From: Candidatus Borrarchaeum weybense
GTDB taxonomy: Archaea > Asgardarchaeota > Sifarchaeia > Borrarchaeales > Borrarchaeaceae
DNA: 64,000 nucleotides
Reading direction: 5' to 3'
Assembly (NCBI GenBank): GCA_019057385.1
Contig: JAHQJS010000004.1
Coordinates: forward strand, 576,001 to 640,000
In this document: in pieces, positions 22,167 through 45,568 of the stretch
How the letters are laid out: each line of letters starts with the position of its first letter
Position numbering within the stretch: position 1 is the first letter of the stretch
Notes under the pieces: generated by a model
What the model was told of the DNA's origin: nothing
What the model saw: the letters and a program-made list of their open reading frames with translations, nothing else
The model's database searches: none
Position numbers and translations under genes: made by a program

Positions 22167-22197
22167 AAGCAAAATGAAGTTAGATAAACCATGCACT

Positions 22198-22662: not shown

Positions 22663-22826
22663 TTTAATTCTACCTTCAAGATCTTATATAAGAAATCGCT
22701 GATAACTAATTGAAATGTCTTTCCATGTTCTATCAGCTATGAATGATTCGTGAACAAAACTATTTATTAGACTTAAGTTCAGGTAGTAATTTGTTACCAA
22801 ACAAATGAAGCCTAAAGAAGTTTTCT

Positions 22827-26839: not shown

Positions 26840-27463
26840 CTTAATGATGCGGAAAACACTCAAATCTGATTGAAAGATAAATTCGTTGGAAATTCTTTTT
26901 GGAACTATTTGCAAATAAAGAAATAATAATAATAAGGAAGATGCCAAACCGTGACTTTAACGAGTTCAATCATGTGTTCCGACCTCTAGATTGTGATAAC
27001 AAATTTTTGTGTTTCTTTTAGAAATAAATAATACTCGCCAAAAATATCCAATATCTTATATCAGAACAAATTGCAATGCAAATTGGATCTAGACATCTCC
27101 AAGGCTCTTAAAAAATAGAACCTTAATGCAAACTTCAACCGATTCATAGTTTTCAAATTTGACTTTTCTAAATGAAATACTTGTTGTTTGACATGCGGAG
27201 AATTTACTGGAAACACTTAAATGAAAAGCTAATGGTTCTCTAAGTAACACACAGTTCTGAAAAACTTAAGAAAAAGATTATAAAAGAACTAAAAAATAAA
27301 AATATCGCGGATTTAATTATAAAATATTGTGAATATCACAATCTCTATTGAAAAAATTGTAGTTTTTTGGAACTTTATTCTTATCTATCCACATATTCAA
27401 TGTGTGATATAATCCCTGTTCAAACACTCGAATGAGCTATACTTTAACGGAGTTCATCCAAAA

Positions 27464-29398
27464 ATGGATAAATATCGTGATCTCTCAACTCTTAAGGACC
27501 TTGACGACTATTTTTTTAAAAAATTACAATTTGATTCTATGCAAAAAGGAGTATTAAATGCACTACCTTACATGGTAAGAATTATTGATAAAAGCTTAAA
27601 TATTGTCTGGGCAAACAAAATATCGATAGAAAGGTGTGGTAACACTATCGGAAAAAAATGGAATGCCGTTTATGAAAATTGCGATGAGGATTATCCAGAT
27701 TGTGTGATAAGACAAATCTTCGCTAAGGGAGAAAAATTTGAGACAGAAAACTCGATTATTTTCACAAATCATACGAGGAGAGATTTTTTAATAAGCCATT
27801 CTCCTCTCAAAGACTTGAATGGAAAAGTCATCGCTGTTATAGAATCCTTAAAAGACATTACAAAGCGAAAACAAGTTGAGAAAGAAATAATGGAATCACA
27901 AAGAAAATACTCAACCATTGTAGAACGAGGAAACGATGGAATTGTTCTTATTCAAGATGGCTTACTAAAATTTGCAAATTTGAAGTTTATTGAAATTACG
28001 GGGTTTTCTTTGCATAGCTTATTCGGAAAGCCGTTTATGGATTTTTTTTCTACTGAATATAAAGAATTATTCGTAGAAATCAATTTAGAGACTTCAGATC
28101 AAAACGAGAATGAAAATATATTCGAAGCAGAAATCATTCCCGAAGATGGAAGTAAGATATCCGTTGAAATAAATTCAAAGAAGTTTAAATACGAAGGGAG
28201 AACCGCGTATGTTTCCATAATCCGTGATATCACTAAGCGCAAACTCGCTGAAGAAAAATTAAAAGATTATACAGAAAATCTCGAAAATAAGATTAAAGAA
28301 CGAACAAAGGCCTTAAGAGAATCTGAAAAAAAATACTCGACTATAGTTGAAAGAGGTAACGATGGAATAGTCATTATTCAGGATGATGTATTAAAATTTG
28401 CAAATTCAAAAATAGTTGAATTCACTGGCTTTTCATTAAAGGAAGCAATTGGACAGCCATTCATTAATTTTATTTCCCCAGAATATAGAGAACTAATATT
28501 AGATAGATATAAAAAAAAGTTGTCTGGAGAGAATGTTCAAAACAAGTATGAAGTAAAGATTCTTTCCAAAGATGGAAGAGAGATACCTGTTGAAATAAAT
28601 GCCAGTATAATTGAATACAAAGGATATCCTGCAGATATGGCTTTAATTCGTGACATTACGGAAAGAAAGCTGACCGATGAAAAACTAAATCAAACGTTAG
28701 TAAATCTGGAACGTTCTAATACTGAACTTGAGCAATTTGCATATATAGCCTGTCATGATCTGCAAGAGCCGTTACGTATGGTTGCGAGTTTTTTACAGCT
28801 GCTGGAGCGACGATATTGGGATAAGATAGATGAAGCTGCTACTGAATTTATTTCATATGCCGTAGACGGGGCAACTCGTATGCAGCAAATGATCAATGAT
28901 TTGTTAGCATTTTCACGCGTGGGGACACGTGGAAAACCATTTGAGAACGTAAACAGTAAGAATGTTTTAGATTTGGCAATTGCAAATCTTGCATTATTAA
29001 TTGAAGAAAATGATGCGATAATAACTCAAAGTTCTCTGCCGATCGTATACGCAGATCCCTTACAATTAACCCAGGTATTTCAGAATCTAATAGTAAATGG
29101 AATCAAATTCCGAAGAGCTGATCCACCGAGGATTCATGTTTCATCAGAAAGAAAAGGCGAGTGGGTTTTTTCTGTAAAAGATAATGGCATAGGTATAGAC
29201 TCAAAGCATTTTAATCGCATTTTCTCGATCTTTCAACGTTTAAATACAAAGGGAAAATATCCAGGTTCAGGTATTGGTCTATCAATATGTAAGAAGATTG
29301 TAGAACGTCATGGGGGAAGAATACGGGTCGAATCAAAGCTTGGAAGGGGCTCAACATTTTTTTTTACGATCCCGATGATAGAAGGTGAAATCTTATGA
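27464..29398 (+). CDS. Multi-PAS (3 PAS) histidine kinase
   Basis: CHDLQEPLR, DNGIG, GSGIGL. Confidence 0.93.
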   Translation: MDKYRDLSTLKDLDDYFFKKLQFDSMQKGVLNALPYMVRIIDKSLNIVWANKISIERCGNTIGKKWNAVYENCDEDYPDCVIRQIFAKGEKFETENSIIFTNHTRRDFLISHSPLKDLNGKVIAVIESLKDITKRKQVEKEIMESQRKYSTIVERGNDGIVLIQDGLLKFANLKFIEITGFSLHSLFGKPFMDFFSTEYKELFVEINLETSDQNENENIFEAEIIPEDGSKISVEINSKKFKYEGRTAYVSIIRDITKRKLAEEKLKDYTENLENKIKERTKALRESEKKYSTIVERGNDGIVIIQDDVLKFANSKIVEFTGFSLKEAIGQPFINFISPEYRELILDRYKKKLSGENVQNKYEVKILSKDGREIPVEINASIIEYKGYPADMALIRDITERKLTDEKLNQTLVNLERSNTELEQFAYIACHDLQEPLRMVASFLQLLERRYWDKIDEAATEFISYAVDGATRMQQMINDLLAFSRVGTRGKPFENVNSKNVLDLAIANLALLIEENDAIITQSSLPIVYADPLQLTQVFQNLIVNGIKFRRADPPRIHVSSERKGEWVFSVKDNGIGIDSKHFNRIFSIFQRLNTKGKYPGSGIGLSICKKIVERHGGRIRVESKLGRGSTFFFTIPMIEGEIL

Positions 29399-29850
29399 AT
29401 CAGCACAAGAGTAGAAATTCCATTGATATCCTGCTTGTCGAGGATAATCCTGGCGATGTGCGTCTGACCATAGAAAGCCTTAAAGAAGCAAAACTACTAA
29501 ATAAACTTCACATTAGTTCTGATGGCGAGGAAGCTATGGCATTCCTACGCCGTGAAAGAGAATTCAAAGATGCACCACGTCCAGATCTTATCCTACTTGA
29601 CCTTAATCTGCCTAGGAAGGATGGACGTGAGGTTTTGGCGGAAATCAAAGAAGATTCAGATTTAAAACAAATACCCGTCGTTATCCTTACCACTTCAAAC
29701 TCATGTGAGGACATTCAAGAAACATACAATAGCTATGCAAACTGCTATATTAAGAAGCCAGTTGTACTTGATGAGTTTATCAAAGTAGTGATGTCCATTG
29801 AAAACTTCTGGCTATGTATTGTACAACTCCCACCAAAAGTCTTTAGGTGA
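29395..29850 (+). CDS. Single-domain response regulator (Rcp1-like)
   Basis: LLVEDN, LILLDLNLP, LTTS, KP; ATGA overlap with the kinase. Confidence 0.93.
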   Translation: MNQHKSRNSIDILLVEDNPGDVRLTIESLKEAKLLNKLHISSDGEEAMAFLRREREFKDAPRPDLILLDLNLPRKDGREVLAEIKEDSDLKQIPVVILTTSNSCEDIQETYNSYANCYIKKPVVLDEFIKVVMSIENFWLCIVQLPPKVFR

Positions 29851-29855
29851 TTTAA

Positions 29856-30293
29856 TTGGCACGTAATCTATTTAAGGTCTTATTGATCGAAGATAATCCT
29901 GGAGATGTGCGATTAATACAAGAAGAACTCACAGATATAGAGGCAATTACTCTTCATAACATAAATTTCGAATTAACAAAAGCTAATCAACTCTCAAAAG
30001 GTTTGAAATGTCTTCATGATCAAAAGATTGACCTAATCTTATTGGATCTAATGTTACCGGACAGTCTAGGGATTGATACTTTCATGGAAGTGCATTTGTA
30101 TGCTCAAAAAGTTCCGATCATTGTCTTAACGGGAATTAACGATGAAAAATTGGCAATTAAAGCAGTTAATGAGGGTGCGCAAGACTATATCGTCAAAGGA
30201 AAAATGGATACGCAATTATTGATGCAATCTATAATTCGTGCGATCGGGAAACATCGAGTGTCATCGAAATTGAAAAAATCATCATATTATTGA
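29856..30293 (+). CDS. Receiver-domain protein (resembles a truncated copy of the N-terminus of 33048..34607)
   Basis: LLIEDN, LLDLMLPDS, GAQDYIVKG. Confidence 0.85.
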   Translation: MARNLFKVLLIEDNPGDVRLIQEELTDIEAITLHNINFELTKANQLSKGLKCLHDQKIDLILLDLMLPDSLGIDTFMEVHLYAQKVPIIVLTGINDEKLAIKAVNEGAQDYIVKGKMDTQLLMQSIIRAIGKHRVSSKLKKSSYY

Positions 30294-30632
30294 CGATAGA
30301 AATTACAGATTACTTTGGAGCAGTCTTCGATAATAATTTTTTAGTGTTTATGGTATATTATAACTTCTGTTGTATTTTGAGAAATTCGCAAAAATTGATA
30401 TTATTGATGATATCTTATACTTTAAAATCTTATCAACTTGCGGAATATTATGTGAGAATCTTTATATTATTTTAATAATTAGTATATTAATTAAGGAATT
30501 CTTATTAAAGAATATTTATTATTGAGAATGTCGTAAAAATTATAAAACTGATTCCAATTTCTAAAAGAAGCATGTCTAATGAGTCCCTCACAAGTCAGAT
30601 ATTATATGCTATATCCAAGCGACGGATGAAAA

Positions 30633-32591
30633 ATGCTCTCTCGACGAGATCAATTACAAAACAATGGAGCCTATGACATGATAGACCAAAACCAAGATAT
30701 CTCAAAACTTGAGATCGTTGAAGACAAACTTACGAAAGTCTTTCGATCGAAGGTTATGTATGAACACATATTAAACGGAGTAACTCATTTGATCATTATA
30801 ATTGATGACACTCTTAATCTTATCTGGGCAAACAAAGCAGCAGTGGAAAAGTGTGGCGATATTATCGGAAAAAAGAGCTACAAAGTATATAATAGTCTCG
30901 ATTCAGAGTGTCCCGATGGTATTGTGAGACAAGTACTTGAAGATGAAGAAGTATTTGAATTAGAGCGTTCAATTACATTTCCGAACGGTACACAGGGAGA
31001 TTTTATTATCACTAGTTCTCCCCTCAAAGATTTAACTGGAAATGCTGTCGCGGTTCTACAAATATTCACAGATATTAGTGAACGTAAACAGGCTGAAGAG
31101 AATTTAAAAAAGAGTGAATTGCATTTTCGTACACTCATCGATAATATCTCAGAAATTATTACTGTATTGGACTCTAAGGGAGAAATCAGTTATCAAAGTT
31201 CGTCGATTGAACTAGTTCTTGGTTACTCAATTGAAAAAATCCTCGAAAAATCTTTTTTTGACTTTGTACATCCCGATGATCTTCCATTGATACTTAAGGT
31301 TTTCCAAGATATTATCAAAAAGCCAGGAGCATCTCGTACTCTTAAATATCGTTTTCATCATAAGAATGGCTCGTGGCGTGTTCTTGAAAGTACTGGGAGA
31401 ACGTTTATTGACGATTCAGGTTCAATAAGTGTCATTTTAACTTCTCGCGATATAACTGAGAGAATGCACGCTGAAAAAGCTCTGATAAAGGCTCAAGAAG
31501 AATCGGCTGTTGCCAAGACGGCCAAACAAACAATTGGTTGTATGATGGATCCTGTTATCATTACTGATCTTCATGGAAAGATAACTCAATTTAATAATGC
31601 TTTTACAAATTTGTTAGGTTATGAATCAGAGATGATAGGTGAGTCTCCTACAAAAATTATTGTTGAAAAGGATGCTTTAAAGATTCAAGAGGCAATAAAA
31701 GAATGTCTTAAGACGGGATTTTTAAACAATTTCGAATGCACAACATTAAGTAAGTATGGAAAAAAAATCCCGGTTTTATTCAATATTACAGTGTTGAAGA
31801 ACTCGACGAATAAATCCATAGGTTTGATTTTTGATGCAAGAGATATTACTGAACAGAAAAAAGCAGAACAAAAATTGCAACTAACTTTAAACGATCTAGC
31901 TCGTTCTAATGCAGAACTGGAACAATTCGCCTATATTGCATCTCACGATCTGCAGGAACCACTACGCATGGTGGCAAGCTTTTTACAATTACTGGAGCGT
32001 CGCTATAAGGATAAGATCGACGACAACGCAAATGAGTTCATTGCCTATGCCGTAGATGGGGCAACTCGTATGCAGCAAATGATCAATGATCTGTTAAAAT
32101 ATTCCCGCGTCGGAACACGGGGTAACCCCCTCGAAAAAACTGATAGCAAGGCTGCCCTTGACTTGGCAATTGCAAATCTCACCGTAGCAATTAGAGAAAA
32201 TAATGCACTGATAACCAATGATCCTCTGCCGATTATTATGGCAGATTCATCTCAATTAATTCAAGTATTTCAGAATCTAATTGAAAATGCCATTAAATTC
32301 CGGAGAGATGTACCACCAAAGATCCATATTTCTGCTGAACGTAAAAAAAACGAATGGATATTCTCTGTAAAAGATAATGGCATAGGTATAGACTCGAAAC
32401 ATTTCGATCGCATTTTCTTAATCTTTCAAAGCCTACATAATAAGATTTCGTATCCAGGTTCGGGTATTGGTCTCTCGATCTGTAAAAAAATTGTTGAACG
32501 CCATGGAGGAAAAATATGGGTGGAATCACAGCATGGAAAGGGCTCAACATTTTATTTTTCAATTCCAGTCACAGGAGGAAAAAACTCATGA
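30633..32591 (+). CDS. Multi-PAS (3 PAS) histidine kinase
   Basis: VHPDD PAS, SHDLQEPLR, NAIKF, DNGIG. Confidence 0.93.
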   Translation: MLSRRDQLQNNGAYDMIDQNQDISKLEIVEDKLTKVFRSKVMYEHILNGVTHLIIIIDDTLNLIWANKAAVEKCGDIIGKKSYKVYNSLDSECPDGIVRQVLEDEEVFELERSITFPNGTQGDFIITSSPLKDLTGNAVAVLQIFTDISERKQAEENLKKSELHFRTLIDNISEIITVLDSKGEISYQSSSIELVLGYSIEKILEKSFFDFVHPDDLPLILKVFQDIIKKPGASRTLKYRFHHKNGSWRVLESTGRTFIDDSGSISVILTSRDITERMHAEKALIKAQEESAVAKTAKQTIGCMMDPVIITDLHGKITQFNNAFTNLLGYESEMIGESPTKIIVEKDALKIQEAIKECLKTGFLNNFECTTLSKYGKKIPVLFNITVLKNSTNKSIGLIFDARDITEQKKAEQKLQLTLNDLARSNAELEQFAYIASHDLQEPLRMVASFLQLLERRYKDKIDDNANEFIAYAVDGATRMQQMINDLLKYSRVGTRGNPLEKTDSKAALDLAIANLTVAIRENNALITNDPLPIIMADSSQLIQVFQNLIENAIKFRRDVPPKIHISAERKKNEWIFSVKDNGIGIDSKHFDRIFLIFQSLHNKISYPGSGIGLSICKKIVERHGGKIWVESQHGKGSTFYFSIPVTGGKNS

Positions 32592-33058
32592 CTATACAAA
32601 TAAGCCAAAAACCTCTTGAGATTTTATTAATTGAGGATAATCCTGGTGATGTTCGTCTGACGGTAGAAGGTTTTAGAGAAACCAAAGCATTTAATAAACT
32701 CAACGTAGCCTATGATGGCGAGGAAGCTATGGCTTTTCTACGACGAGAAGGTAAGTTTAAAAAAGCACCTCGTCCAGACCTCATTTTACTCGATCTTAAT
32801 TTACCTAAGAAAGACGGTCGTGAGGTATTAGAAGAAATTAAAGATGATAGAGACCTGAAATGTATCCCCGTAGTGATCTTAACGACCTCTCATTCTATTG
32901 ATGATATTGAAGAGACGTATTCTAATCATGCTAATTGCTATATCACAAAACCAGTTGATCTGAATCAATTTGTCAAAGTAGTAAAATCCATTGATGACTT
33001 TTGGTTGAACATTGTGAAATTGCCGAATAAGGAGACTGGTGATTATAATGGAGGGTAA
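32588..33058 (+). CDS. Single-domain response regulator (Rcp1-like)
   Basis: LLIEDN, LILLDLNLP, TKP; start set to ATG 32588 (ATGA overlap with the kinase stop). Confidence 0.92.
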   Translation: MTIQISQKPLEILLIEDNPGDVRLTVEGFRETKAFNKLNVAYDGEEAMAFLRREGKFKKAPRPDLILLDLNLPKKDGREVLEEIKDDRDLKCIPVVILTTSHSIDDIEETYSNHANCYITKPVDLNQFVKVVKSIDDFWLNIVKLPNKETGDYNGG

Positions 33059-34607
33059 TCAACTCAGAGTCTTATTAATAGAAGATAATCCAGGCGATGC
33101 AAGGCTAATACAAGAAGAACTTGCTGAAACAGACCCCTTATGTCATGAAATTACCCACTTCTTTCTGTTGCATGTTGATCGGCTCTCGCAAGGCCTTGAA
33201 TGCCTTAAAAACGAAAAGATCGATATTGTACTTCTGGATCTCGGATTACCAGATAGCCTAGGGCTAGATACGTTCACAAAACTATATGCTTATTCGCCAC
33301 AAGTACCGATTATTGTCTTGACTGGTTTTGATGATGAGAATCTGGCAGTTAAAGCTGTGGGAGAGGGTGCACAAGATTATCTTGTCAAAGGAAAATTTGA
33401 TAAAAACCTGCTGACACGTTCTATATGCTATGCTATTGAGCGACACCGATTGATCTCAAAATTAAGAGATTATGCAGAAAACCTTGAAAAAATGGTTGAA
33501 GAGAGAACAATGGATCTTAAAGAGTCTGAGGAGCGCTATCGCGGTTTATACGAGTCATCTATAGATGGCATTGCCACAGCAGACATGAAGGGCAATCTTA
33601 TAGACTGCAATCAGGCTTTCGCGGAATTGCTCGGCTATACAAAGGAGGAACTGCTTAAACTAACCTATTGGGATCTTGCGCCTAAGAAATGGCATGAACT
33701 CACGGCAAAAATCCACGCTGAACAGGTATTAACTAGGGGCTATTCTGATGTGTATGAAAAAGAATACATGAAGAAGGATGGAACAATCTTTCCCATCTCT
33801 ATTAGATCGTGGATCATCAAAGACAAGGATGACAAGTCAGTGGGAACCTGGGCAATCGTTCAGGACATCACTGAAAGATATAAGATCATGGAAATGAAGG
33901 ATCGGTTTATATCAGTCGCCACCCATGAACTTCGAACACCACTTATCTCGGTCAAGGGATACATTGACTTCCTTCTATCTAAGAATTTGAACGTAACACC
34001 CGAGTTACTTGAGTCGAGCCTGCAAGTGGTGAATCGCAACACTGACCGGTTGATTTATCTGACCGACGAGTTGTTGGATATCCAGCGCATTAAATCTGGA
34101 CGAATCTCCTTAAATTTGGAGTTTCAGGATCTTATTAATATCATAAATCATTGTATAGAGGAAATTCAACCCTTTATTGATGAGAAAAAACAAAATCTCA
34201 ACTTGAAAATTCCAGAAAGGCCCTTAAAGATTCGAGTGGATCGTGTTCGCCTTAGCCAAATTATTATGAACATTCTTAATAATGCTACTAAATTTACGCC
34301 AGAAGGCGGAGACATAACGCTTGCCGTTGAAGAGACGGACGGTGTCATGCAAGTTCAAGTTTCAGACAATGGAATTGGAATTCGTGAGGAGGATTTGGAG
34401 AAAGTTTTTCGCCCCTTCTCGGACATAAAGAAGCCAACCTACATCAAGGGCACAGGTCTTGGTCTCAGCGTAACCAAAGGTCTGGTGGAAGCACATGGAG
34501 GCAGGATCTGGGCACATTCAGATGGAGAGGATCGAGGAGCAGCTTTCACTTTTACCTTACCAAATACAGAATCAAACCCAAAACCAAAGGTAAAGGAGGT
34601 AAATTAA
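33048..34607 (+). CDS. Hybrid REC-PAS histidine kinase
   Basis: N-terminal REC (LLIEDN, LLDLGLPDS), one PAS, THELRTPL, NATKFT, DNGIG, GTGLGL. Confidence 0.93.
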   Translation: MEGNQLRVLLIEDNPGDARLIQEELAETDPLCHEITHFFLLHVDRLSQGLECLKNEKIDIVLLDLGLPDSLGLDTFTKLYAYSPQVPIIVLTGFDDENLAVKAVGEGAQDYLVKGKFDKNLLTRSICYAIERHRLISKLRDYAENLEKMVEERTMDLKESEERYRGLYESSIDGIATADMKGNLIDCNQAFAELLGYTKEELLKLTYWDLAPKKWHELTAKIHAEQVLTRGYSDVYEKEYMKKDGTIFPISIRSWIIKDKDDKSVGTWAIVQDITERYKIMEMKDRFISVATHELRTPLISVKGYIDFLLSKNLNVTPELLESSLQVVNRNTDRLIYLTDELLDIQRIKSGRISLNLEFQDLINIINHCIEEIQPFIDEKKQNLNLKIPERPLKIRVDRVRLSQIIMNILNNATKFTPEGGDITLAVEETDGVMQVQVSDNGIGIREEDLEKVFRPFSDIKKPTYIKGTGLGLSVTKGLVEAHGGRIWAHSDGEDRGAAFTFTLPNTESNPKPKVKEVN

Positions 34608-34609
34608 TT

Positions 34610-35482
34610 TTGACAGATAAAATTTTGATTGTAGATGACGAACCAGATACTGTTAACCTAGCAAAAATGATTTTGGAGAGAGATGGCTACCACGTAATTA
34701 GTGCATATAATTGGGATGACGCTATAAAGAAGGCGGAATCGGAGATGCCGGACTTTATCTACTTAGACATGGTTATGCCAGGTAAAAGTGGCTTGGAGGT
34801 CTGCAAAATTTTGAAGGCCCAGCCCAAGACCAAGAAAATTCCGGTAGTGATGTTTACAGCTCTTGGACGGGATGTTGATAAAAAGTTAAGCAAGGAAGCC
34901 GGGGCTGACGGTCATTTTTTGAAACCCTTCGAGGCTGAGGATTTAATTGCCGAGATAAAAAAACATCTAAAATTTATTCGCCCTGAAAAGTTTTCTAATA
35001 CCCTGGAACTTGATCATGAACGGTTAAAGGGTAGAAAAATCCTGCTAGAGTTCGATCCCGTAGTTCCTTATGAAAGGGTGGTCAGAGATTTTGTGATGGA
35101 ATGTCAGGTACACGAAGAAGTAATTGTTCTCTTAGGAAACAAAGCAAGTGTAGTCTATCAAACGCTTCAAAAATATGATGGTCTAGAGTTTATCGCTTTG
35201 ATCCCCCAACCGATACTTACCCCTATTCTAGAGACAAATGCTGGAACACCAGTAAACATAATCTGTGATAATCTAACAGACCTTATTTTCTCTATGGGCT
35301 TCCAGGCCACATATAAATTCATAAAACACACGTTAGAACGACTAACCACAGTTTTATCGACTGCCCTATTTCTTTTGAACCCCAAAGCTCACCCGTCAAA
35401 CGAAACCTATAGTATCAGAAGCCTCTTTAGCGATCAAATAACCTTTGGAAAAGATGGACTGACAATTAATAAGTTAACTTAA
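34610..35482 (+). CDS. Response regulator: REC fused to an inactive KaiC-like (DUF835-type) domain
   Basis: N-terminal ILIVDDE / YLDMVMP / KPF. C-terminal RecA-like alpha/beta region with no Walker A (GRKILLEFDP, IICDNLTDLI, LFLLNPKAH, RSLFSDQI). Confidence 0.75.
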   Translation: MTDKILIVDDEPDTVNLAKMILERDGYHVISAYNWDDAIKKAESEMPDFIYLDMVMPGKSGLEVCKILKAQPKTKKIPVVMFTALGRDVDKKLSKEAGADGHFLKPFEAEDLIAEIKKHLKFIRPEKFSNTLELDHERLKGRKILLEFDPVVPYERVVRDFVMECQVHEEVIVLLGNKASVVYQTLQKYDGLEFIALIPQPILTPILETNAGTPVNIICDNLTDLIFSMGFQATYKFIKHTLERLTTVLSTALFLLNPKAHPSNETYSIRSLFSDQITFGKDGLTINKLT

Positions 35483-35695
35483 TTCGGAGGCAAAAATTTG
35501 TGCGTTGATCTTGAGAATTAAGGAAATCCAAGAATACCATCGCAAGGCACCGAAGAACTCATAAAAGGACACTAGAGCACCAGAAAACTGAAGGAACTCA
35601 TAATTTGACGTGAGATCATGTTGATGCCAGACTTCAAGGTCTGACAAAGCGATCCCAAGATTCTTGAAGTTCGAATATTAAGTGGTAGACAATCA

Positions 35696-35815
35696 GTGAG
35701 CTACCTCATGCTCAAGCGCTGAGGCTTCCTGCTTCAACGACAGACTCGATCTCCTTGACGGGTTACGGAGGTCTCGATGTTCACAGGCTTAATATCCCTA
35801 TGCCCCGTAGGTACT
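35696..35815 (-). ncRNA. Putative TnpB omegaRNA scaffold inside the MITE (guide would be the flanking UGAUUGUCUACCACUUAAUA)
   Basis: acctacggggcatagggatattaagcctgtgaac...gtcgttgaagcaggaagcc...tcac resembles tnpB 3'-end/omegaRNA sequence; TTTATATA box at 35846-35839 upstream. Confidence 0.65.
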
Positions 35816-35900
35816 CATAGGCTCTATCACCAACAAAGTATATAAACCCAAGTCATTCATCACCACGCTACAGCAATGGTGCTTTCTTGCTTAGTTGTTT
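35696..35900 (-). mobile_element. 205-bp non-autonomous IS200/IS605 MITE
   Basis: Minus strand: TTAC|15 nt-AAAG-hairpin(cacca/tggtg)-atgaat ... gcagGAAG-hairpin(cctca/tgagg)-tagcTCAC. IS608-like end geometry; no ORF. Confidence 0.85.
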
Positions 35901-36043
35901 GTAAGAATTATTGATGGTTACTCTCGTCTAAATTATGTAAATAATAACATTTGAATTAAATCAAAAAAAATATGAATAAGTTAAGTGGGTTTTACTCAGA
36001 GTATTTCTCTCTGTTAATTTAAGGTAAATTTAAGATCTGTGAG

Positions 36044-36724
36044 GTGCTTCAGATGGAACGTTTGAATACAGGAATTAGAGGTTTAGACCAACTTATTGAT
36101 GACGGAATTCCCCGCTCATGGGTTATTCTCATTAAAGGGCCAGCCGGCTGTGGAAAAACAACTTTTGGTCTTCAGTTTTTGTGTTATGGCGCAGAAAATG
36201 ACGAGTTTGGTATTTATATCACTATAGGTGAGCCAATATCACATGTAAAAAAATATATTCGATTTAACTTGAATCTGGAAAAATTAACAACAGAAGGCAA
36301 GCTTATTCTTGTTGATACAAAACTCATAAAACTTTCTGATCTCAGTGAGATTTTACAAGATGCAATAGGTAAGTATAACGCACAAAGAATTGTTATTGAC
36401 TCATTTACATCTCTCATTTCCCTCTATAAAGATGAACCGACACTTCGTCAAGAATTTTCTAATTTTCTTGATGTGGTAAGACAAGTGAAGAATGCCACGT
36501 GGATGATTATAGAAGAAGGAACGCCGCGCTCTCCTGATGCCCTTAGTGAGTTTATGGCAGATGGAGTTATTAATCTCACTTATTTCTTAAGAGGAAACCA
36601 TCGTGTTAGGGGAATAGAGATTACTAAGATGAGAGGAACTGCGCATTCTGAAGGAATTCATCTCTATAAGTTTAATGAAGATGGAATTACGGTGTATCCC
36701 GAGGAAAAAGTGTTTGAAATGTAA
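36044..36724 (+). CDS. Single-domain KaiC-like ATPase
   Basis: TGIRGLD, Walker A GPAGCGKTT, RIVIDS, ADGVI, KMRGT; the EE motif is reduced to GE. Confidence 0.9.
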   Translation: MLQMERLNTGIRGLDQLIDDGIPRSWVILIKGPAGCGKTTFGLQFLCYGAENDEFGIYITIGEPISHVKKYIRFNLNLEKLTTEGKLILVDTKLIKLSDLSEILQDAIGKYNAQRIVIDSFTSLISLYKDEPTLRQEFSNFLDVVRQVKNATWMIIEEGTPRSPDALSEFMADGVINLTYFLRGNHRVRGIEITKMRGTAHSEGIHLYKFNEDGITVYPEEKVFEM

Positions 36725-36856
36725 TTGTGATCGTATCTATTGGCGGACATTGTATTCTGAATGTAATTCTAAGATATTCTATCATATAACTTGACACAAA
36801 AAAATGATTCGATCCAATTTGCAAGTCACACAAAGATGATTATCGAGGTATGACAC

Positions 36857-37375
36857 GTGTTCCTGCTCGTGAAAGTGATCGTTATTGGCGATGGGGCTGT
36901 CGGGAAAACAACTCTATCAACTCACTTCACATTCAGCAAATTTATTGAATATTACAAAATGACAATAGGAGTAGATTTTTTTGCGAAAGATGTGAAGATA
37001 GGAAAGGATGTAGTCAGATTGCAAATTTGGGATATGGCAGGTCAAGAAAAGTTCGCATTCATGCGCCCTAATTATTATGACGGTGCAAGCGGAGGATTTT
37101 TAGTATACGATGTAACTCGTCCTGAAACCTTTAAGGATCTTGATATGTGGCTACACGAGGTATATAAAAGATGCGGGAAGATTCCTCTTTTTTTGTTAGG
37201 CAATAAAATAGATTTAGAGACTCGCAAGGTTAAAAACTCGCAAGCCGAACAATACGCGGAAAAACAGGGACTAACGTATTACGAAACCTCTGCGAAAACA
37301 GGAGAATGCGTCTTTGATGTCTTTTCTAAGCTAGCACATACGTTATATAATAAATATTTAGAGTCTGGGAATTAA
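36857..37375 (+). CDS. Rab-like small GTPase
   Basis: GDGAVGKT, TIGVDF, WDMAGQE, NKID, ETSAK; no C-terminal Cys. Confidence 0.95.
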   Translation: MFLLVKVIVIGDGAVGKTTLSTHFTFSKFIEYYKMTIGVDFFAKDVKIGKDVVRLQIWDMAGQEKFAFMRPNYYDGASGGFLVYDVTRPETFKDLDMWLHEVYKRCGKIPLFLLGNKIDLETRKVKNSQAEQYAEKQGLTYYETSAKTGECVFDVFSKLAHTLYNKYLESGN

Positions 37376-37487
37376 GCATTATGGTTGATAAGGATCTTGA
37401 AGAAATAGCATTAAAGAGGTTTCGCACAATTAGAAACATACAAAACCTCTATTTAAAATCTGATGGAAAAAATCGGAGAAATTAGAT

Positions 37488-38693
37488 GTGATTTTAAGCG
37501 TTTACATCATCAATTCTTTCTCTGGCCTTTGCCTATTATCATGGTCAAGAATACTAAAGAAATTTGATGATACTTTAATTGGTGGCTTTCTCATTGCAAT
37601 AAGCAGATTTGGTCGAGAAATTGGGGGAGAAAACGCCCAATTTGTTGATTTTCGTGAAAGGAAATTCATATTTGCATACAAAGACAAGCTGATTTTTGTT
37701 ATTGAAATAACAAGTTATAAAGAAGTGCAAATAGGACGTAGACTTCTGCAACAAATAATGGTTGCATTTTTCAGGGACTATGGAGGCGCGAAAGAAATAA
37801 TCACTGAAACTGATGTCTCGATATTGTGGCCTTTTTGTGATACAATTGAAGAACTGATTTCAAGTCAAATTGTTGAATTAGAAAGGCTAGTCGAAAGCAT
37901 TCAAAAAAGTTCAAAGGCCTCAGGCATACTATTGCTAAATTTAAGTGGAGACATATTCAGTACCACGCCAAGACAAATAGTAGATCTTGGCGAGAAATTT
38001 ATCAAGAGCGTTAAAATGATACTTAGTGCTCACGAGTCAGTTACAAAAGATGATAGTCCATTTGAGATCGTCATTAATGGACTTCATCAGACTTTTTACA
38101 GCCGCCGAATAATTGGAGATCATTTTATCGTGGTTTACGGACCAAAGGAAATGGGAGAGGATAATTTAAGGATCTTAATTCAGGGACATCTAGATGAACT
38201 TGCGAGCGTCTTAATGACTTTTGGTCATATTAGACCAAGAGCAGTAGGTACGGAGACCACAATTCAGAAATTTCTGGAATGGAGTGCTAAACACCCCCTG
38301 TTGTCACAATTAAGATTTCAAGAGTATGAAGCTTATTTCGATACTATAATAAATGCAGAAAAAGGGCTTTACGAATTTGATTGTGTCCTAAAATCGCCGA
38401 CTAATATTGCATTTATTCGAATTTATAGACATTTTGGCCAATCTGATAGCAAATTCATCCAAAGATTTTTAGATGATGCTAATTCGGTATGCAGAAAACT
38501 AGATTCCTCGCCAGTTTTGTTTTTAGCCATAAGTAAAGATAATTTCTCAAAGAAGGCTAGGGAAATCATAAAAAAAACAATGATACAGTATAAAGACAAG
38601 TATTTTCAATTAGTTCTTTGTAAGCAAACTAACGATGAATTTCAAATTATTGAAGGATTAAGAGATAAAAAAAGCAAAGGAGGAATTCTTTGA
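37488..38693 (+). CDS. Longin + roadblock + Mrr-like (PD-(D/E)XK fold) multidomain protein
   Basis: N-terminal VYII..SGLCL...LIGGFLIAISRFGREI (longin-like); middle GILLLNLSG...EIVING...IVVYG (roadblock-like); C-terminal EFDCVL...FIQRF...AISKDNFSKKARE (restriction-endonuclease-like). Confidence 0.65.
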   Translation: MILSVYIINSFSGLCLLSWSRILKKFDDTLIGGFLIAISRFGREIGGENAQFVDFRERKFIFAYKDKLIFVIEITSYKEVQIGRRLLQQIMVAFFRDYGGAKEIITETDVSILWPFCDTIEELISSQIVELERLVESIQKSSKASGILLLNLSGDIFSTTPRQIVDLGEKFIKSVKMILSAHESVTKDDSPFEIVINGLHQTFYSRRIIGDHFIVVYGPKEMGEDNLRILIQGHLDELASVLMTFGHIRPRAVGTETTIQKFLEWSAKHPLLSQLRFQEYEAYFDTIINAEKGLYEFDCVLKSPTNIAFIRIYRHFGQSDSKFIQRFLDDANSVCRKLDSSPVLFLAISKDNFSKKAREIIKKTMIQYKDKYFQLVLCKQTNDEFQIIEGLRDKKSKGGIL

Positions 38694-39442
38694 GGAAAGT
38701 TCCCACAGGAATTAAAGGGCTTGACAAATTACTTGAAGGTGGTGTTCCCGAAAGTTGGGGGGTTCTGTTGACTGGTAGCACTGGAACAGGGAAAACAACT
38801 CTTGCAGTACAATATCTATACAATGGCTGTGTGCAATATGACGAGCCCGGAGTATTTGTTAGTTTAGAAGAAGACAATCAGAAGATTGCGCGTGTGATGA
38901 GATTATTTGGATGGGATCTTGAGGTTCTACAGAACGACAAGAAACTTGTAATGATAAATGCTGTTCCAAAAAGAACTCCCGGCAAATCAGGATACGTTAT
39001 TGAAACCCCATTTTTTTCTCGAACCTTTAGCTTTGATTCAATTTGCGATTTACTAGAAGACAAGATAAAGGAAACAAACGCAAAACGCGTTGTCATTGAT
39101 GGCTTAAGCGGTCTCACACTTCAATATCAGAACGAATTCGAAATTCGACAAGGTCTTTTAGATATTACAAATGTCATTAGCGAAGCAGGCTGCACTTCGC
39201 TCTATACTTCAGAAATGCCTGAGGGAAAACCAGGGATCAGCAGATTTGGAGTCGAAGAATTCATCGCTTCTGGTGTCATTGTACTTTATTATCTTCGTGA
39301 AAGAGGAAAAAGAATACGTGCCATAGAAATTCGAAAAATGCGAGGTACTAACCATGACGAATCTCTGCATCCATATAAAATTACTGAAAAAGGAATCGTC
39401 GTCTTTCCGGAAGAAATAATTTTTATGGAAAAAGATGTGTAA
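38690..39442 (+). CDS. Single-domain KaiC-like ATPase
   Basis: TGIKGLD, GSTGTGKTT, SLEE, RVVIDG, EEFIASGVI, KMRGT; TTGA overlap with the upstream gene. Confidence 0.92.
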   Translation: MRKVPTGIKGLDKLLEGGVPESWGVLLTGSTGTGKTTLAVQYLYNGCVQYDEPGVFVSLEEDNQKIARVMRLFGWDLEVLQNDKKLVMINAVPKRTPGKSGYVIETPFFSRTFSFDSICDLLEDKIKETNAKRVVIDGLSGLTLQYQNEFEIRQGLLDITNVISEAGCTSLYTSEMPEGKPGISRFGVEEFIASGVIVLYYLRERGKRIRAIEIRKMRGTNHDESLHPYKITEKGIVVFPEEIIFMEKDV

Positions 39443-40036
39443 AAAATAAAAAGAAAATAAGAACTTTAGCGAAACCGCGCCTTTTTATGATGAAATTGCC
39501 GTTGAGAGGATATTATTTGTTTGAGGAACTCTGATTCACTTATGATGCGGATAATTACTTTTCACTAGTCTTACTAACCTGTTTTTGTAATCTAAAATAC
39601 AACTATATTTATTTTTCACAATTAAATCTTAATTTTTCGCAAAATAGTAGAGAAGTAATTATAAAACTGCGAATTATCTTTTTAGTATTAATTTATTTTG
39701 AAAAAACTCTGCAATTTGAAAATGTTATAGAGGAAACTTGTACTAGATAGAGCTCAATTTGTTATAGAAACCGCATTTTTCTTATTAAAAGAGAAATATA
39801 TTGTGATATCACTTAAGAAAATCGCGAATATAGTCTAATGACTATTATTTTTCTCGGAAATTTTTTCCAGAAACTTAAAAAGTAAGATCTTTGCATCATA
39901 ATACTCATACTTCTTATGAAGGATCAAAGGGCAATAAACACAAGCGTTTAGAATAGAACAAAGAACGCAACGTGTCTAACTATTTTGTCGATAACATAAG
40001 CAAAAATCCGAAAAAAATCCGCGAGGGTTAATTTCA

Positions 40037-40507
40037 TTGAAAGAGGACGAATTAATCAGCCGTAAACACACACAAACTTCAGATAAGGAGAAAGCAAAAA
40101 AAGATCCTATTTCTGGTACCGGAAATATTTTGATAATGGAAGATGACGATGTTATCAGAGAGGCACTAGGAGAGATATTAACTCATTTAGGCTATCAGAT
40201 TGAACTCGCTAAGAATGGTGAAGAAGCTATCTCTTTGTTTAAAGCAGCAAAATCAGTAGGACAGTCTTTTAATTTAGTAATAATAGATTTAACAATTCGT
40301 TGTGGGATGGGCGGCAAAGAAGCAATTATGAAGTTGCTTGAAATAGATCCTAATGTTAAAGCTCTTGTTTCCAGCGCCTATTCAATAGAATCAGTTATGT
40401 CTGATTATAAGAGTTACGGATTCTGCGGCGTTGTTTCCAAACCCTACAATATTTCAGAATTAAGTGAAATCATATCGGAAATAATTGGTAGTAATTGCGT
40501 AAAATGA
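40037..40507 (+). CDS. Stand-alone receiver domain resembling the C-terminal REC of bacterial hybrid kinases
   Basis: ILIMEDD, IIDLT, GMGGKEA, VSSAYS, KPY. Confidence 0.85.
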   Translation: MKEDELISRKHTQTSDKEKAKKDPISGTGNILIMEDDDVIREALGEILTHLGYQIELAKNGEEAISLFKAAKSVGQSFNLVIIDLTIRCGMGGKEAIMKLLEIDPNVKALVSSAYSIESVMSDYKSYGFCGVVSKPYNISELSEIISEIIGSNCVK

Positions 40508-40530
40508 GCCTTTCATGCAATTATTCCTTT

Positions 40531-42564
40531 TTAGATTAGTGCTTTGTATATCGTTACAGCATTATTCTTAAACGCAATTTCAAATAAATCAGGATGCTCA
40601 TTAAATCTTTGCAGTTCTTCCATTGTGAATTTTTGGCGTTCTCTTGGAGATACAAGTACGTAGTTCACATCATATTTTTTTAAGAGATCAGAAACAAGGT
40701 TTTCATTATCTGAGGTGTACATTGAAATTGTGTCGTTATATCTCTGATCAAAGTATAAACGTTGGCTCTCTACGTGAATTTCACTCCCTACAACGACTCT
40801 CCTTGCTCCATACATGATAAGAGGACTTGGTGCTTCTATAGAAAGTGAAGGGGCAACTAAGAATACTGCATCTGAAGATGTATTTGCTTTAACCCAATTA
40901 TATGCCTCCATCTCTTCTTCAGTGATGATATAATAGGGTGTTTCCATCGTAGCAGTAGTATACCATCTTTGCCAGAAAGGAACAAAAGCAATAATCATAA
41001 TTATAATAAGTACTATAAGAGGCATTGAAGAGATTCGAATCCTTTTGTTCACAAGATTCATTGTTTCTTTAATCCCGACTGCGCCTAAGAAGACTACTGG
41101 GATTGTTATGGAGTAATAATAGGTATAATTACCGCCACGATACAAGTGCGTAAATACTATAAAGAGGATTGTACATAATATCCACGATCCAAGTAGTAGA
41201 GATAATTTATGCTCTTTTTTGATTTGCGTCAAAAATCCTATACACCCGAATATAGAACAGACACCAAAGTAGATGAGTATCGCTTGTATAGATTGCAAAG
41301 GAACAAAAAGTCCAACTAAAGGTCTTATTCGGAAATATCCGCCAGGGTTTCCTCTCGCTAGATCTATAAGATATGGAGCGAATGTGACGGTGTATGCTCC
41401 AAATGGTATCATTGATGCAATTGTTGAAAGTGTAAATATTATGCTTTCTTTATACTTCCTTAATGACAATAAGATGAGATAGAAGATTGCAAAAGTCCCT
41501 ATAATCGTAAGGTGAAGAATTGGATGGTAAAATGGCAATGCTGCAAGAAGAGCGAATGCTATAATATAAAACCGTTTAGTTTTTTGTATTAAATAAGAAT
41601 AGAGAAAAAAAGCAAATAGTACTGCAACAATATATCCTGGTGCACGTATGAAGCCAGAATAAAGGGATTCGATAGCTAAAGCCCTCACAAATACTTGTGG
41701 TCCTGGTGTCCTTTGATATAGTGCAAAAAGTGGAAATGTACCTGTCTCTATGGCAACAATGAGCCAATAAATAGCAATGCCAACTGACATAAGATATGCA
41801 GCTATTAGCCCTGCCTTTTTACTCTTAAATGTATCGACAACAAAAATAAAACACAAAGCGATAAATATCGTATTCATTGTAGCGTTTTGAATTATCATAG
41901 TTAAAACTACATTGATTCCACTCGTTTTCATTATAGCTGCATAGTGAAGCATGTATAACCATGGATAGGTAAGCACAACCCCTGCATATTCGGGGGTCTG
42001 AGGAGGGATACTGCGTGCACATTCCTCTATAATTGCACAATACCAGAAATGATCAATAGGATCGAAATAGAAGAGAGTATTTCCCTGATCAACGCGAATC
42101 AACAGAGTGTAAAAGACTATGTTGTTTGAAAATTGAAATAAGAGTAAAATGGCTAGTATAACTAACGTTATTTTTTGAAATGGCACTCCAGAGTAATTAA
42201 TCGTTCTGTTTACATATTGAGAGAACAGAATGCCAATAGCAAGGGCAACATCAATAGATAAAACAATAAGCCAAATGCTAAGTCTTCCAAAAATACTTCC
42301 TAAAGGCAAGATGATTAACGGAGATGCAACTATGTTCAAAGCTGCTGAAAAAAGCAGCATACGTATTCTGTCAGTTTGGATTTGTAAGAAAAATCTTAAT
42401 AGAATATAACCAGGCAAAATATTTAGAAGAGAGATATACACTAGACTGCGAAATGGGTTGATAAAGAAGAACGATATATTAAGCAAGAACATTGAAATAA
42501 TCAAAATTTTTTCTGAGTTCCATATAGGAAGCAACCTTGCTTTCGCTTCATCAAAGGTTTTCAT
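40531..42564 (-). CDS. Polytopic membrane protein, probable GT-C glycosyltransferase
   Basis: Many TM helices; YPWLY loop; C-terminal AYNWVKANT...LLKKYDVNYVLV..RE domain typical of archaeal GT-C/STT3-like proteins. Confidence 0.65.
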   Translation of the reverse strand: MKTFDEAKARLLPIWNSEKILIISMFLLNISFFFINPFRSLVYISLLNILPGYILLRFFLQIQTDRIRMLLFSAALNIVASPLIILPLGSIFGRLSIWLIVLSIDVALAIGILFSQYVNRTINYSGVPFQKITLVILAILLLFQFSNNIVFYTLLIRVDQGNTLFYFDPIDHFWYCAIIEECARSIPPQTPEYAGVVLTYPWLYMLHYAAIMKTSGINVVLTMIIQNATMNTIFIALCFIFVVDTFKSKKAGLIAAYLMSVGIAIYWLIVAIETGTFPLFALYQRTPGPQVFVRALAIESLYSGFIRAPGYIVAVLFAFFLYSYLIQKTKRFYIIAFALLAALPFYHPILHLTIIGTFAIFYLILLSLRKYKESIIFTLSTIASMIPFGAYTVTFAPYLIDLARGNPGGYFRIRPLVGLFVPLQSIQAILIYFGVCSIFGCIGFLTQIKKEHKLSLLLGSWILCTILFIVFTHLYRGGNYTYYYSITIPVVFLGAVGIKETMNLVNKRIRISSMPLIVLIIIMIIAFVPFWQRWYTTATMETPYYIITEEEMEAYNWVKANTSSDAVFLVAPSLSIEAPSPLIMYGARRVVVGSEIHVESQRLYFDQRYNDTISMYTSDNENLVSDLLKKYDVNYVLVSPRERQKFTMEELQRFNEHPDLFEIAFKNNAVTIYKALI

Positions 42565-43942: not shown

Positions 43943-44118
43943 TTCATCTCCCTGGTCATCCTCCGACATTTTTTCCTTTTTTCTGATTTATTATCGCGAA
44001 GTTTTCTTGCTTATTCTTGTAGTTTATTTAACGTATGACTCTATGTACGAAAAAATTAAAACTTGAAAAGAAAAGCATATCAACCAGAAGGACTTTTTTA
44101 ATTCTAGGAGGCAAAGTC

Positions 44119-44979
44119 TTGCTTAACAGTATTTGGATCATCGACAAAGACACGGGTACATGTGTATTCCTGAGGAGGTATGGGTATGGCATACCAGATG
44201 ATCAAACATTGATTTCACGTTTCTTCTCTGCCCTTTGGAACTTTTTTCAAGAAATTGAGGGCCGGGGAATATCTACTTTGACTACAACTGAACTTGACTT
44301 TGCTCTAGCGGAGTCAGAAAAACTGCTCTTCATAGTTGCCACTGCCCGTGATTCAGTTCATCAATTGAAGATGGTCAGTTGGGTCAAGAATTTAAAAGAA
44401 GAGTTTTTGAAATCTTATGAAGAGGACTCTAATTTTCAAGACTCAAGATTTGTTGATGAATTGAATGAAAAACTAGATCAGGTATTAGATGCTTGGATTG
44501 ACGAATATATTGACGAATCGGAAGTTTTCTCTACAGCAGATTTACGAAGGGCATCACAATTAGGGACCGAACTCAATCAACTGTTGACAATGCGCTTTGG
44601 CCATCAAGGTCTTGAAACCCTTAAATCCTTGGATGGATTAAAAACAGTAAAAGATGTTCAGGAAGAGTCTGGACTCCCTAATAAAGAATTAAAAGAACTC
44701 TTTCGCATTAGTATTCAACACGGTCTCATCGAACAATCACAAAGGGCCACAGATCTGCGTATACCCTATCGAACAACAAGCACGCCTGAAGTTTTCGCTT
44801 ATGGAACTCCTCTGAGAAATAGAGTATGGAATAGATTTGGAAATCGAGGAATTGATGTCCTTGGAACGATCGATGGGATACGCCATGTAAGAGATATTTC
44901 TGCTTTTTTGGGGATTGATATGGATATCGTGAAACAAATACTAGAATTAGCCCAAAAAGAGGGTTTAATCGAATGGTAG
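44119..44979 (+). CDS. Longin-domain protein with two C-terminal winged-helix-like repeats
   Basis: SIWIIDKDTGTC...LISRFFSALWNFFQEI (longin-like); repeats RFG..G...L..(L/I)DG...V......G......GLIE; start set to TTG 44119 after GGAGG. Confidence 0.7.
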   Translation: MLNSIWIIDKDTGTCVFLRRYGYGIPDDQTLISRFFSALWNFFQEIEGRGISTLTTTELDFALAESEKLLFIVATARDSVHQLKMVSWVKNLKEEFLKSYEEDSNFQDSRFVDELNEKLDQVLDAWIDEYIDESEVFSTADLRRASQLGTELNQLLTMRFGHQGLETLKSLDGLKTVKDVQEESGLPNKELKELFRISIQHGLIEQSQRATDLRIPYRTTSTPEVFAYGTPLRNRVWNRFGNRGIDVLGTIDGIRHVRDISAFLGIDMDIVKQILELAQKEGLIEW

Positions 44980-45013
44980 GTTATTAAGACTTAGTTTTGA
45001 ATACAATGGGTAA

Positions 45014-45568
45014 TTATAATTCTAACGCTTCGACATCTATAACAATCTGTTCTGTTAGTTGAGTGAAGGTATCTTCCACATGTAGTCCATCTTTTGCAGA
45101 TGTTTCAAAGAAGGGTATACCACGTTCATCCGCAAAACTTTGTCCTTCATCAACTCCAACAACTCTTAACTCCTCAAGATCCTTTTTCGTACCTATTAAG
45201 ATCGATGGGATGTTTCCACAATGCTTTTCGATATCACCAAACCATTTTGGCAAATTTTGGAAACTCTTACGATTTGTGATATCATAACAACAGAGTGCTC
45301 CTAGCGCTCCCCGATAATATAACGGACGGACATAAGAAAAGCGTTCTTGGCCTCCTGTATCCCATATTTGTAGCTTTACAGTAGAAATTTTACTCTTGCT
45401 TTCTTGGCTTATTTTCAATATCTTGATTGAGAAATCTACACCAATAGTCATTTTATAACTTTCTCGAAACTGCCCTGTGGTAAATTTACGCGTAAGCGAT
45501 GTTTTACCGACCGCTCCATCTCCGACAACGATCACCTTGAACAAATAATCGAAAGTCATTAAATTCAC
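45014..45568 (-). CDS. Rab-like small GTPase
   Basis: GDGAVGKT, TIGVDF, WDTGGQE, TKKD, ETSAK. Confidence 0.95.
   Translation of the reverse strand: MNLMTFDYLFKVIVVGDGAVGKTSLTRKFTTGQFRESYKMTIGVDFSIKILKISQESKSKISTVKLQIWDTGGQERFSYVRPLYYRGALGALCCYDITNRKSFQNLPKWFGDIEKHCGNIPSILIGTKKDLEELRVVGVDEGQSFADERGIPFFETSAKDGLHVEDTFTQLTEQIVIDVEALEL

Follow-up and report, generated by a model that had tools for sequence, protein, structure and literature searches.

Archaeal KaiC-like ATPases are said to have been described as signalling hubs with inactivated KaiC partners by Makarova, Galperin and Koonin in 2017 (mBio 8:e01959-17). Longin and roadblock folds serve as platforms for GTPase activation (GTPase-activating proteins, GAPs) or nucleotide exchange (guanine-nucleotide-exchange factors, GEFs) in small GTPases, examples being MglB, Ragulator, and Mon1-Ccz1. 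Among the output domains of response regulators in archaea, Galperin et al. (2018, PMC5847659) class DUF835 and MEDS as inactivated KaiC (iKaiC), and KaiC hubs with iKaiC receivers are an already known kind of system according to the same paper, which cites Makarova et al. 2017. In the Asgard archaeon MK-D1, GTPase genes generally do not share operons with genes for roadblock, longin, or TRAPPC3 proteins, and the partners of the GTPases are unreadable from the genome (Tran et al. 2024, PMC10933270). Here we describe a locus in Candidatus Borrarchaeum weybense that carries both sets of components. It is a 15.9-kb island in a stretch of 64,000 nucleotides (the window) that corresponds to positions 576001 to 640000 of contig C4 in genome G000, an Asgard genome of 8 contigs and 4.18 Mb. 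The island encodes a phosphorelay of PAS histidine kinases and receivers, a receiver fused to an inactivated KaiC-like domain (REC-iKaiC), two KaiC-family ATPases (KaiC-1 and KaiC-2), a Rab-like small GTPase, and a 401-amino-acid longin, roadblock, and nuclease-fold protein that we call LRN. On balance we favor, with modest confidence, the reading that the locus is one signalling module composed of two linked, presumptive transcription units, the phosphorelay (unit A) and an operon (unit B), working by the mechanism proposed below. This reading is based on gene content, domain identities, conserved gene order, co-inheritance as a single insertion/deletion (indel), and a co-duplicated pair of Rab-like and KaiC genes.

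Like the archaeal KaiC hubs and the REC-DUF835 regulators, the island has single-domain KaiC ATPases, a receiver whose fusion partner is a KaiC domain without a P-loop, a PAS kinase coupled to that receiver, and a REC-iKaiC C-terminal domain related to DUF835, DUF7504, and MEDS. Unlike them, it adds a Rab-like GTPase and a longin-roadblock protein, neither of which is described for such hubs in the literature searched. With MglA-MglB of Myxococcus and Thermus and with Rag-Ragulator/GATOR it shares a small Ras-superfamily GTPase encoded beside a roadblock-fold protein; however, the island GTPase is Rab-like rather than MglA- or Rag-like and is without a roadblock C-terminal domain, the roadblock is one of three LRN domains, KaiC ATPases and a phosphorelay are attached, and any GAP or GEF role is putative. 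The folds are the same as those of Asgard GTPases and roadblock/longin proteins from the same phylum (PMC10933270; PDB 7ezb Thor-Rab, 7f8m, 7yh1, 9jue, and 8yqk Roadblock-Longin), among which longin-roadblock fusions are known. In contrast to the situation in MK-D1, the Rab-like gene and the gene of a longin-roadblock protein share a conserved operon, and LRN has a third, nuclease-fold domain and a coupling to KaiC. The components are known, as are two of the pairings, KaiC hubs with iKaiC receivers (PMC5847659) and Asgard GTPases with longin/roadblock proteins (PMC10933270). An earlier note on this DNA, made from the letters alone, knew of no characterised system with this layout, and no description of the layout was found in the literature searched; that search, outside of which Makarova et al. 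2017 fell, returned no paper that links KaiC to the GTPase, longin, or roadblock genes of Asgard archaea.

The island and its parts, in window coordinates, are as follows.

23590-39442: accessory island of 15.9 kb, comprising four PAS kinases, receivers, REC-iKaiC, and the KaiC-Rab-LRN-KaiC operon; delimited by the joined flanks in the related genome G004
24107-26839, + strand: histidine kinase of 910 amino acids, four PAS domains, HisKA, and HATPase (Pfam)
27464-29398, + strand: histidine kinase of 644 amino acids, PAS, HisKA, and HATPase (Pfam)
29395-29850, + strand: stand-alone receiver of 151 amino acids (Response_reg, 1.9e-18)
29856-30293, + strand: stand-alone receiver of 145 amino acids (Response_reg, 1.8e-16)
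30633-32591, + strand: histidine kinase of 652 amino acids, PAS, HisKA, and HATPase (Pfam)
32516-33058, + strand: stand-alone receiver of 180 amino acids (Response_reg, 5.8e-19)
33039-34607, + strand: hybrid kinase of 522 amino acids, REC, PAS, HisKA, and HATPase (Pfam), with its stop 2 nucleotides before the REC-iKaiC gene
34610-35482, + strand: REC-iKaiC response regulator of 290 amino acids, REC at residues 1-120 and P-loop-less KaiC-like domain at residues 126-290
35483-36043: spacer between the REC-iKaiC and KaiC-1 genes, 561 bp in the window (alignment of related loci)
35695-35897: copy of a dispersed repeat of about 200 bp within the spacer, 203 bp, not part of the system (BLAST)
36044-36724, + strand: KaiC-1, single-domain KaiC-family ATPase of 226 amino acids (PF06745, 4e-51)
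36857-37375, + strand: Rab-like small GTPase of 172 amino acids (Ras family, 3e-51)
37488-38693, + strand: LRN, 401 amino acids, with longin at residues 1 to about 120 (37488-37847), roadblock at residues 124-246 (37857-38225), and a PD-(D/E)xK-like domain at residues 250-392 (38235-38663)
38690-39442, + strand: KaiC-2, single-domain KaiC-family ATPase of 250 amino acids (PF06745, 3e-71)

The open reading frame (ORF) list places the five genes from REC-iKaiC to KaiC-2 where the earlier note had put them, all on the + strand, and Pfam, profile, and structure comparisons agree with each of its domain calls (REC with inactive KaiC, KaiC-1, Rab-like GTPase, longin-roadblock-nuclease-fold protein, KaiC-2). 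It had also reported four PAS kinases and their receivers upstream of REC-iKaiC on the same strand, which Pfam bears out, with three stand-alone receivers, and an overlap by TTGA, which the LRN stop and the KaiC-2 start do share at 38690-38693. It erred in running the receiver gene directly into KaiC-1: a gap of 561 bp separates the two, and the inserted dispersed repeat accounts for 203 bp of it. The true start of KaiC-1 is probably the ATG at 36053.

The order kinase, receiver, kinase, REC-iKaiC, spacer, KaiC, Ras, LRN, KaiC recurs in five related contigs, namely, three Joint Genome Institute (JGI) metagenome contigs (L001 to L003), the NCBI metagenome-assembled genome (MAG) "Promethearchaeota archaeon" (L004), and contig C118 of genome G002. 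The 4-nucleotide overlap of LRN and KaiC-2 is kept in L001 to L004. A search for related loci with KaiC-2 returned only an already known MAG and an unrelated bacterial match. Since the full-order loci are close kin, with 80 to 92% protein identity for four of the five genes, the synteny is weak evidence when taken alone and may be simple inheritance. It would fit two independent systems that are neighbors by descent, that is, a two-component pathway ending in a REC-iKaiC that acts elsewhere and a separate operon with its own promoter and input. We regard this alternative as rather unlikely.

The DNA of the window was compared with that of four other genomes of the genus, including the 100% complete G004. 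There, the sequences that flank the island in the window (21371-23483, at 94% identity, and 39435-42537) adjoin each other, a stretch of about 265 bp being all that lies in between. The right edge of the island is the stop codon of KaiC-2, and the left edge lies at about 23590. Because G004 joins both flanks, the 15.9 kb with all of the kinases, the receivers, and the operon constitutes a single presence/absence unit, and joint gain or loss of kinases and operon speaks against two systems that merely adjoin. G002 holds both an empty site (contig C240, L034) and a filled copy (contig C118, L035), which indicates that the binned G002 population is strain heterogeneous. A glutamine-amidotransferase gene at 22827-23588 is missing beside the island in L004 and in G002 C118; thus, the left junction differs between relatives. 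A homologue of ubiquitin-conjugating enzymes (UQ_con, 22198-22662, - strand) adjoins the island in the window and also flanks it in L004 and G002 C118.

The strongest argument that receiver, KaiC, and GTPase may act together comes from a second cluster in the same genome, at C4:900442-903453 (L028, 8443-11454), which encodes a Ras-family GTPase of 177 amino acids, a KaiC of 251 amino acids, and a 436-amino-acid KaiC-like protein with a P-loop and a C-terminal REC. The GTPase of this cluster shares 71% identity with that of the window (next best, 52%), and the KaiC shares 68% with KaiC-2 (next best, 38%). The two genes are reciprocal best paralogues between the clusters, from which it follows that the Rab-like and KaiC genes were duplicated as a pair. 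Each cluster contains a fusion of receiver and KaiC-like domain, the order of the two domains being reversed between the clusters, and the second cluster is without LRN. This renewed linkage of a receiver-KaiC-like fusion to the co-duplicated pair counts against two independent neighboring systems. The second cluster is 96 to 97% conserved in G002 and G004, and a TnpB gene and an actin homologue are located just upstream of it.

Other families retain parts of the arrangement. In another family (G007 and G018), a KaiC gene immediately precedes the gene of a full-length LRN homologue with 24 to 25% identity. In genus g24 of a further family, the nearest relatives of KaiC-2 have 41 to 43% identity, and there the KaiC gene is followed on the same strand by a longin gene (about 196 amino acids) and then a Ras gene in G048 (L054, 270-2767) and G063 (L055, 307-3242), and directly by a Ras gene in G040 (L053, 7989-9647). 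The conservation of the neighborhood across Asgard genomes, which the earlier note had put forward as a check, is found in part: the full order is present in five related contigs, and at phylum distance LRN keeps only its KaiC neighbor. A rule for the whole phylum that KaiC genes go with GTPase genes was rejected. In a background control of the 30 top-scoring KaiC loci, one from each of 30 Asgard genomes, only 2, both from one genus, had a Ras or longin gene within 1.5 kb, and linkage of KaiC to GTPase or longin genes is therefore a property of particular KaiC subfamilies. A further cluster in the genome, at G000:C6:532039-537093 (L029), consists of KaiC, KaiC, Fe-type alcohol dehydrogenase (Fe-ADH), longin, and longin genes on one strand; a metabolic gene interrupts it, the linkage is doubtful, and it was not counted. 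Its edges carry an RRXRR-HNH gene and a TnpB gene.

The single-module reading has to contend with several observations. Within 8 kb of the REC-iKaiC orthologues with 45 to 55% identity, which come from Bathyarchaeia, Thermoplasmata, and a JGI contig, there is no gene for KaiC, a GTPase, or LRN, which means that the receiver does not need the operon, and in other phyla they occur with a kinase only, as would be expected of a two-component pathway that stands by itself. Conversely, the LRN-KaiC pairs of G007 and G018 have no GTPase, second KaiC, or two-component genes nearby, the KaiC-longin-Ras clusters are likewise without receivers, and the Ras genes of genus g24 are not clear orthologues of the window GTPase. 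Within the genome of the window, KaiC is beside Ras or longin at 2 to 3 of about 11 loci compared with 0.5 to 0.7 expected by the author's estimate, which is weakly above chance. LRN of the window is 65% identical to that of L004 (8001-9206), and only 53% in the roadblock domain, compared with 80 to 92% for its four neighbors; LRN evolves unusually fast relative to them. The module was found in one genus-level clade only and is missing from the complete congeneric genome G004, and it is accessory. Finally, the distance from REC-iKaiC to KaiC-1 varies from 355 to 561 bp across loci, the spacer has accepted a repeat insertion, and separate promoters are likely for the units that it parts.

The coupled pair of PAS kinase and REC-iKaiC in both Bathyarchaeia and Thermoplasmata can also be counted in favor of the single-module reading; the orthologue on the JGI contig has no adjacent kinase. 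The earlier note had envisaged a His-Asp phosphorelay feeding a KaiC hetero-oligomer that controls a GTPase switch. That the genes belong together is supported by synteny, the single indel, the second cluster, and the KaiC-LRN and KaiC-longin-Ras arrangements elsewhere; the lone kinase-receiver pairs, the spacer, and the LRN-KaiC pairs without two-component genes speak against a tight wiring to the phosphorelay.

The spacer itself bears on both readings. About 355 bp of it (35483-35694 plus 35898-36043) is kept in four loci about as well as coding DNA, which counts against independence of the two units. It contains long invariant blocks together with indels that break the frame, and for this reason no conserved ORF can be assigned to it. 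The consensus fold of the conserved part is weak (-9.3 kcal/mol), and an Rfam search of the whole window gave no match. The spacer probably holds the promoter and leader of the operon; it is possible that an unknown RNA takes the place of promoter or leader. The equivalent spacer in L001, L004, and G002 is without the repeat copy that lies at 35695-35897 in the window. With BLAST, this copy gives 62 further matches in the genome of the window, of which 15 have a length of 150 bp or more and 79 to 86% identity, and dozens of matches to the same repeat of about 200 bp are spread across four congeneric genomes. The 203-bp sequence has no Rfam match and folds no better than its shuffles (z = -0.31). 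TnpB genes occur in the genome of the window.

For the single module we propose the following course of events. Unit A would be the PAS-kinase phosphorelay, with its last kinase translationally coupled to REC-iKaiC across the 2-nucleotide gap, and unit B the operon of KaiC-1, Rab-like GTPase, LRN, and KaiC-2. One or more of the kinases would phosphorylate the receiver of REC-iKaiC, and this phosphorylation would alter the association of its dead KaiC domain with an ATPase ring of KaiC-1 and/or KaiC-2. LRN, translationally coupled to KaiC-2, may read the state of the ATPase, and its longin and roadblock domains would in turn determine the nucleotide state of the Rab-like protein. The most far-reaching form of this proposal is an archaeal ATPase-to-GTPase relay. 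In it, a dead-KaiC subunit that can be phosphorylated would gate the KaiC rings, and these would govern the nucleotide state of the Rab-like GTPase by way of a longin-roadblock adaptor; we offer it speculatively and think it unlikely. We infer all contacts in this chain, which way the signal flows, and what the proteins do biochemically, as well as the "bridging prokaryotic and eukaryotic signalling" of which the earlier note spoke.

The receiver of REC-iKaiC is intact (Response_reg, 5.5e-25, 88 bits), with DD, D53, T83, and K105 read from the translation. The motif GxxxxGK[ST] is absent from its C-terminal 165 residues (126-290). Directly compared with Pfam, this C-terminal part gave weak matches to DUF7090, DUF7504, and DUF835 (E values, 0.008 to 0.04), and a search with it alone recovered 91 relatives, many of which carry DUF835 (PF05763), DUF7504, DUF7090, MEDS, or KaiC (PF06745), the Pfam identifiers among the relatives being PF05763, PF24336, PF23365, PF14417, and PF06745. 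Its Walker B region aligns with the KaiC-like-REC paralogue of the second cluster. Because its relatives carry families that are labeled as inactivated KaiC (PMC5847659), the designation REC-inactive KaiC is correct, and as judged from its residues the protein is a predicted regulator of the REC-DUF835-type iKaiC kind, combining a phospho-acceptor receiver with a KaiC-derived domain without a P-loop.

KaiC-1 and KaiC-2 match the KaiC family (PF06745, RecA-superfamily ATPases) over the whole domain with 173.9 and 240 bits, respectively, both above the cut-off of 26.6 bits. KaiC-2 has all of the motifs, namely, Walker A GSTGTGKT, the catalytic EE in SLEED, and Walker B VVIDG. KaiC-1 contains Walker A GPAGCGKT and Walker B IVIDS, and its catalytic pair reads TIGEP, the first Glu being changed to Gly; its orthologues likewise have GE in place of EE. 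As in the cyanobacterial KaiABC clock, the domain is of the KaiC type, and KaiC-1 and KaiC-2 align best to CI of bona fide KaiC (E values, 1e-68 and 2e-44 for the whole-chain match). Unlike the clock protein, they are single-domain proteins (226 and 250 amino acids) rather than CI-CII, and no KaiA or KaiB gene is present in the locus. The two tandem domains of circadian KaiC are lacking, and nothing points to a timekeeper.

Motifs G1 to G5 of the GTPase are intact (GDGAVGKT, TIGVDF, WDMAGQE, GNKID, and ETSAK), and its top PDB matches are Rab2B (5.9e-38), Rab2A, a Thorarchaeota Rab, Rab14, and Rab7. Its C-terminus (...NKYLESGN) contains no Cys and has no prenylation motif, and we call the protein Rab-like for this reason, not a eukaryote-type membrane-anchored Rab. 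A missing C-terminal Cys is usual among Asgard Rab-like proteins.

LRN gave no Pfam, NCBIfam, or PADLOC match, and PF03259 was not matched in sequence either. Full-length relatives are scarce: among 1.84 billion cluster representatives, 4 had an E value of 1e-10 or lower, one of these being a partial sequence of 156 amino acids and two having 25 to 26% identity. LRN alone as a query of the genome contig collection found no relatives, and a feature search of the ESM Atlas returned only unnamed Asgard clusters with scores of 0.81 to 0.88. Many paralogues of the domain formed by the first 125 residues or so occur throughout the phylum. The profile made from 33 homologues of this N-terminal domain matches the longin of MON1 (1.9e-4), VAMP7 (1.7e-3 to 7.8e-3), and AP-3 mu (0.013); Fuz_longin_1 (PF19036) is matched by 8 of the 33 (best, 4e-9) and PF13774 by 7. 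The domain can on these profile matches be classed as a longin; the assignment rests on the profiles, since the region was modelled with a predicted local distance difference test (pLDDT) score below 50. The AlphaFold model of LRN, built with nine homologues, has a pLDDT of 66 (about 57 to 83 in the roadblock part). In this model, residues 124-246 superimpose on MglB (6hjm_H) with a Z score of 16.7 and a root-mean-square deviation of 1.8 over 117 aligned residues, and the Z scores are 14 to 15.7 against the Asgard roadblocks 9jue, 7f8m, and 7yh1 and 13 to 14 against Ragulator and the C-terminal domains of Rag proteins, which assigns the predicted middle domain to the roadblock fold.

The C-terminal domain of LRN, modelled alone with a pLDDT of 86.7, was subjected to an all-against-all structure comparison, in which AF1548 (Z score, 10.7), NucS (9.4), Can2 (9.3), and XisH (9.2) were matched, and most of the 50 matches listed are nucleases of the PD-(D/E)xK fold. 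The modelled domain has a PD-(D/E)xK (restriction-endonuclease-like) core. In every homologue aligned, however, the (D/E)xK motif is missing; only the Asp of strand 2 (FD) is nearly invariant, and strand 3 reads AFIRIY or IFLKVIK, without an acidic residue. Owing to the absence of the motif in all homologues, the domain is almost certainly not catalytic, and it is probably a docking domain. DNA binding by this domain was considered and found no support, the isoelectric point (pI) ranging from 5.3 to 9.7 across homologues. Complex prediction for LRN with KaiC-2 gave scores of 0.35, 0.25, and 0.29, on either side of the mark of 0.32.

These properties bear on a further alternative, namely, that the functional core consists of KaiC and LRN only, with a target that is not a GTPase (nucleic acid, for instance, or some other machine), and that the Rab-like protein is a lineage-specific addition. 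It draws on the fact that just KaiC and LRN remain together at phylum distance, on the translational coupling of LRN and KaiC-2, on the nuclease fold of the LRN C-terminal domain, and on the many longin paralogues in the phylum with weak winged-helix matches. Yet the nuclease motif is not conserved and the domain is not consistently basic, it is as regulators of small GTPases that longin and roadblock folds are best known, every close relative has the Rab-like gene just before LRN, and the second cluster, where LRN is not present at all, has the co-duplicated Rab-like and KaiC genes. We consider a KaiC-LRN core of this kind improbable.

Elsewhere in the window (44035-45568), a longin protein of 314 amino acids with a weak C-terminal winged-helix match is encoded convergently with another Ras-family GTPase (184 amino acids). 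Several longin paralogues in the phylum show weak winged helix-turn-helix matches, which suggests that longin-DNA-binding fusions exist in the phylum.

The strain variability of the block, with ATPases and a protein of PD-(D/E)xK fold encoded in a region that has IS605-type elements and the dispersed repeat nearby, might also point to an anti-virus or mobile-element cargo island. In PADLOC, however, only generic REC and P-loop matches were obtained (SduA with region 3-63 of the REC domain; mad8, 1e-6), with none for LRN or the GTPase, and sensor kinases, receivers, and a GTPase make up the content. No integrase and no terminal repeats were found at the island edges. Without defence-model matches beyond these and without a catalytic nuclease motif in any homologue, a defence function is unlikely, and we hold the cargo-island explanation as a whole to be very improbable indeed.

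In Asgard archaea, eukaryote-like small GTPases number in the dozens and longin and roadblock proteins are likewise numerous, and about 38 Ras-like ORFs and 24 longin ORFs are present in the genome of the window. This locus is an exception in that it offers readable partners: an Asgard GTPase that would otherwise be an orphan is given partners that can be tested, in a small, clonable set of five proteins. Little can be learned from the module about the ancestral Asgard state, since it is accessory and has a narrow distribution. If the proposal is true, this would be the first Asgard small-GTPase switch in which input, regulator, and GTPase can all be read from one operon, and archaeal KaiC-based signalling would connect to GTPase-regulator folds that eukaryotes inherited. 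The relay would then be built of folds that eukaryotes later used in regulators of the Ragulator/GATOR/Mon1-Ccz1 type.

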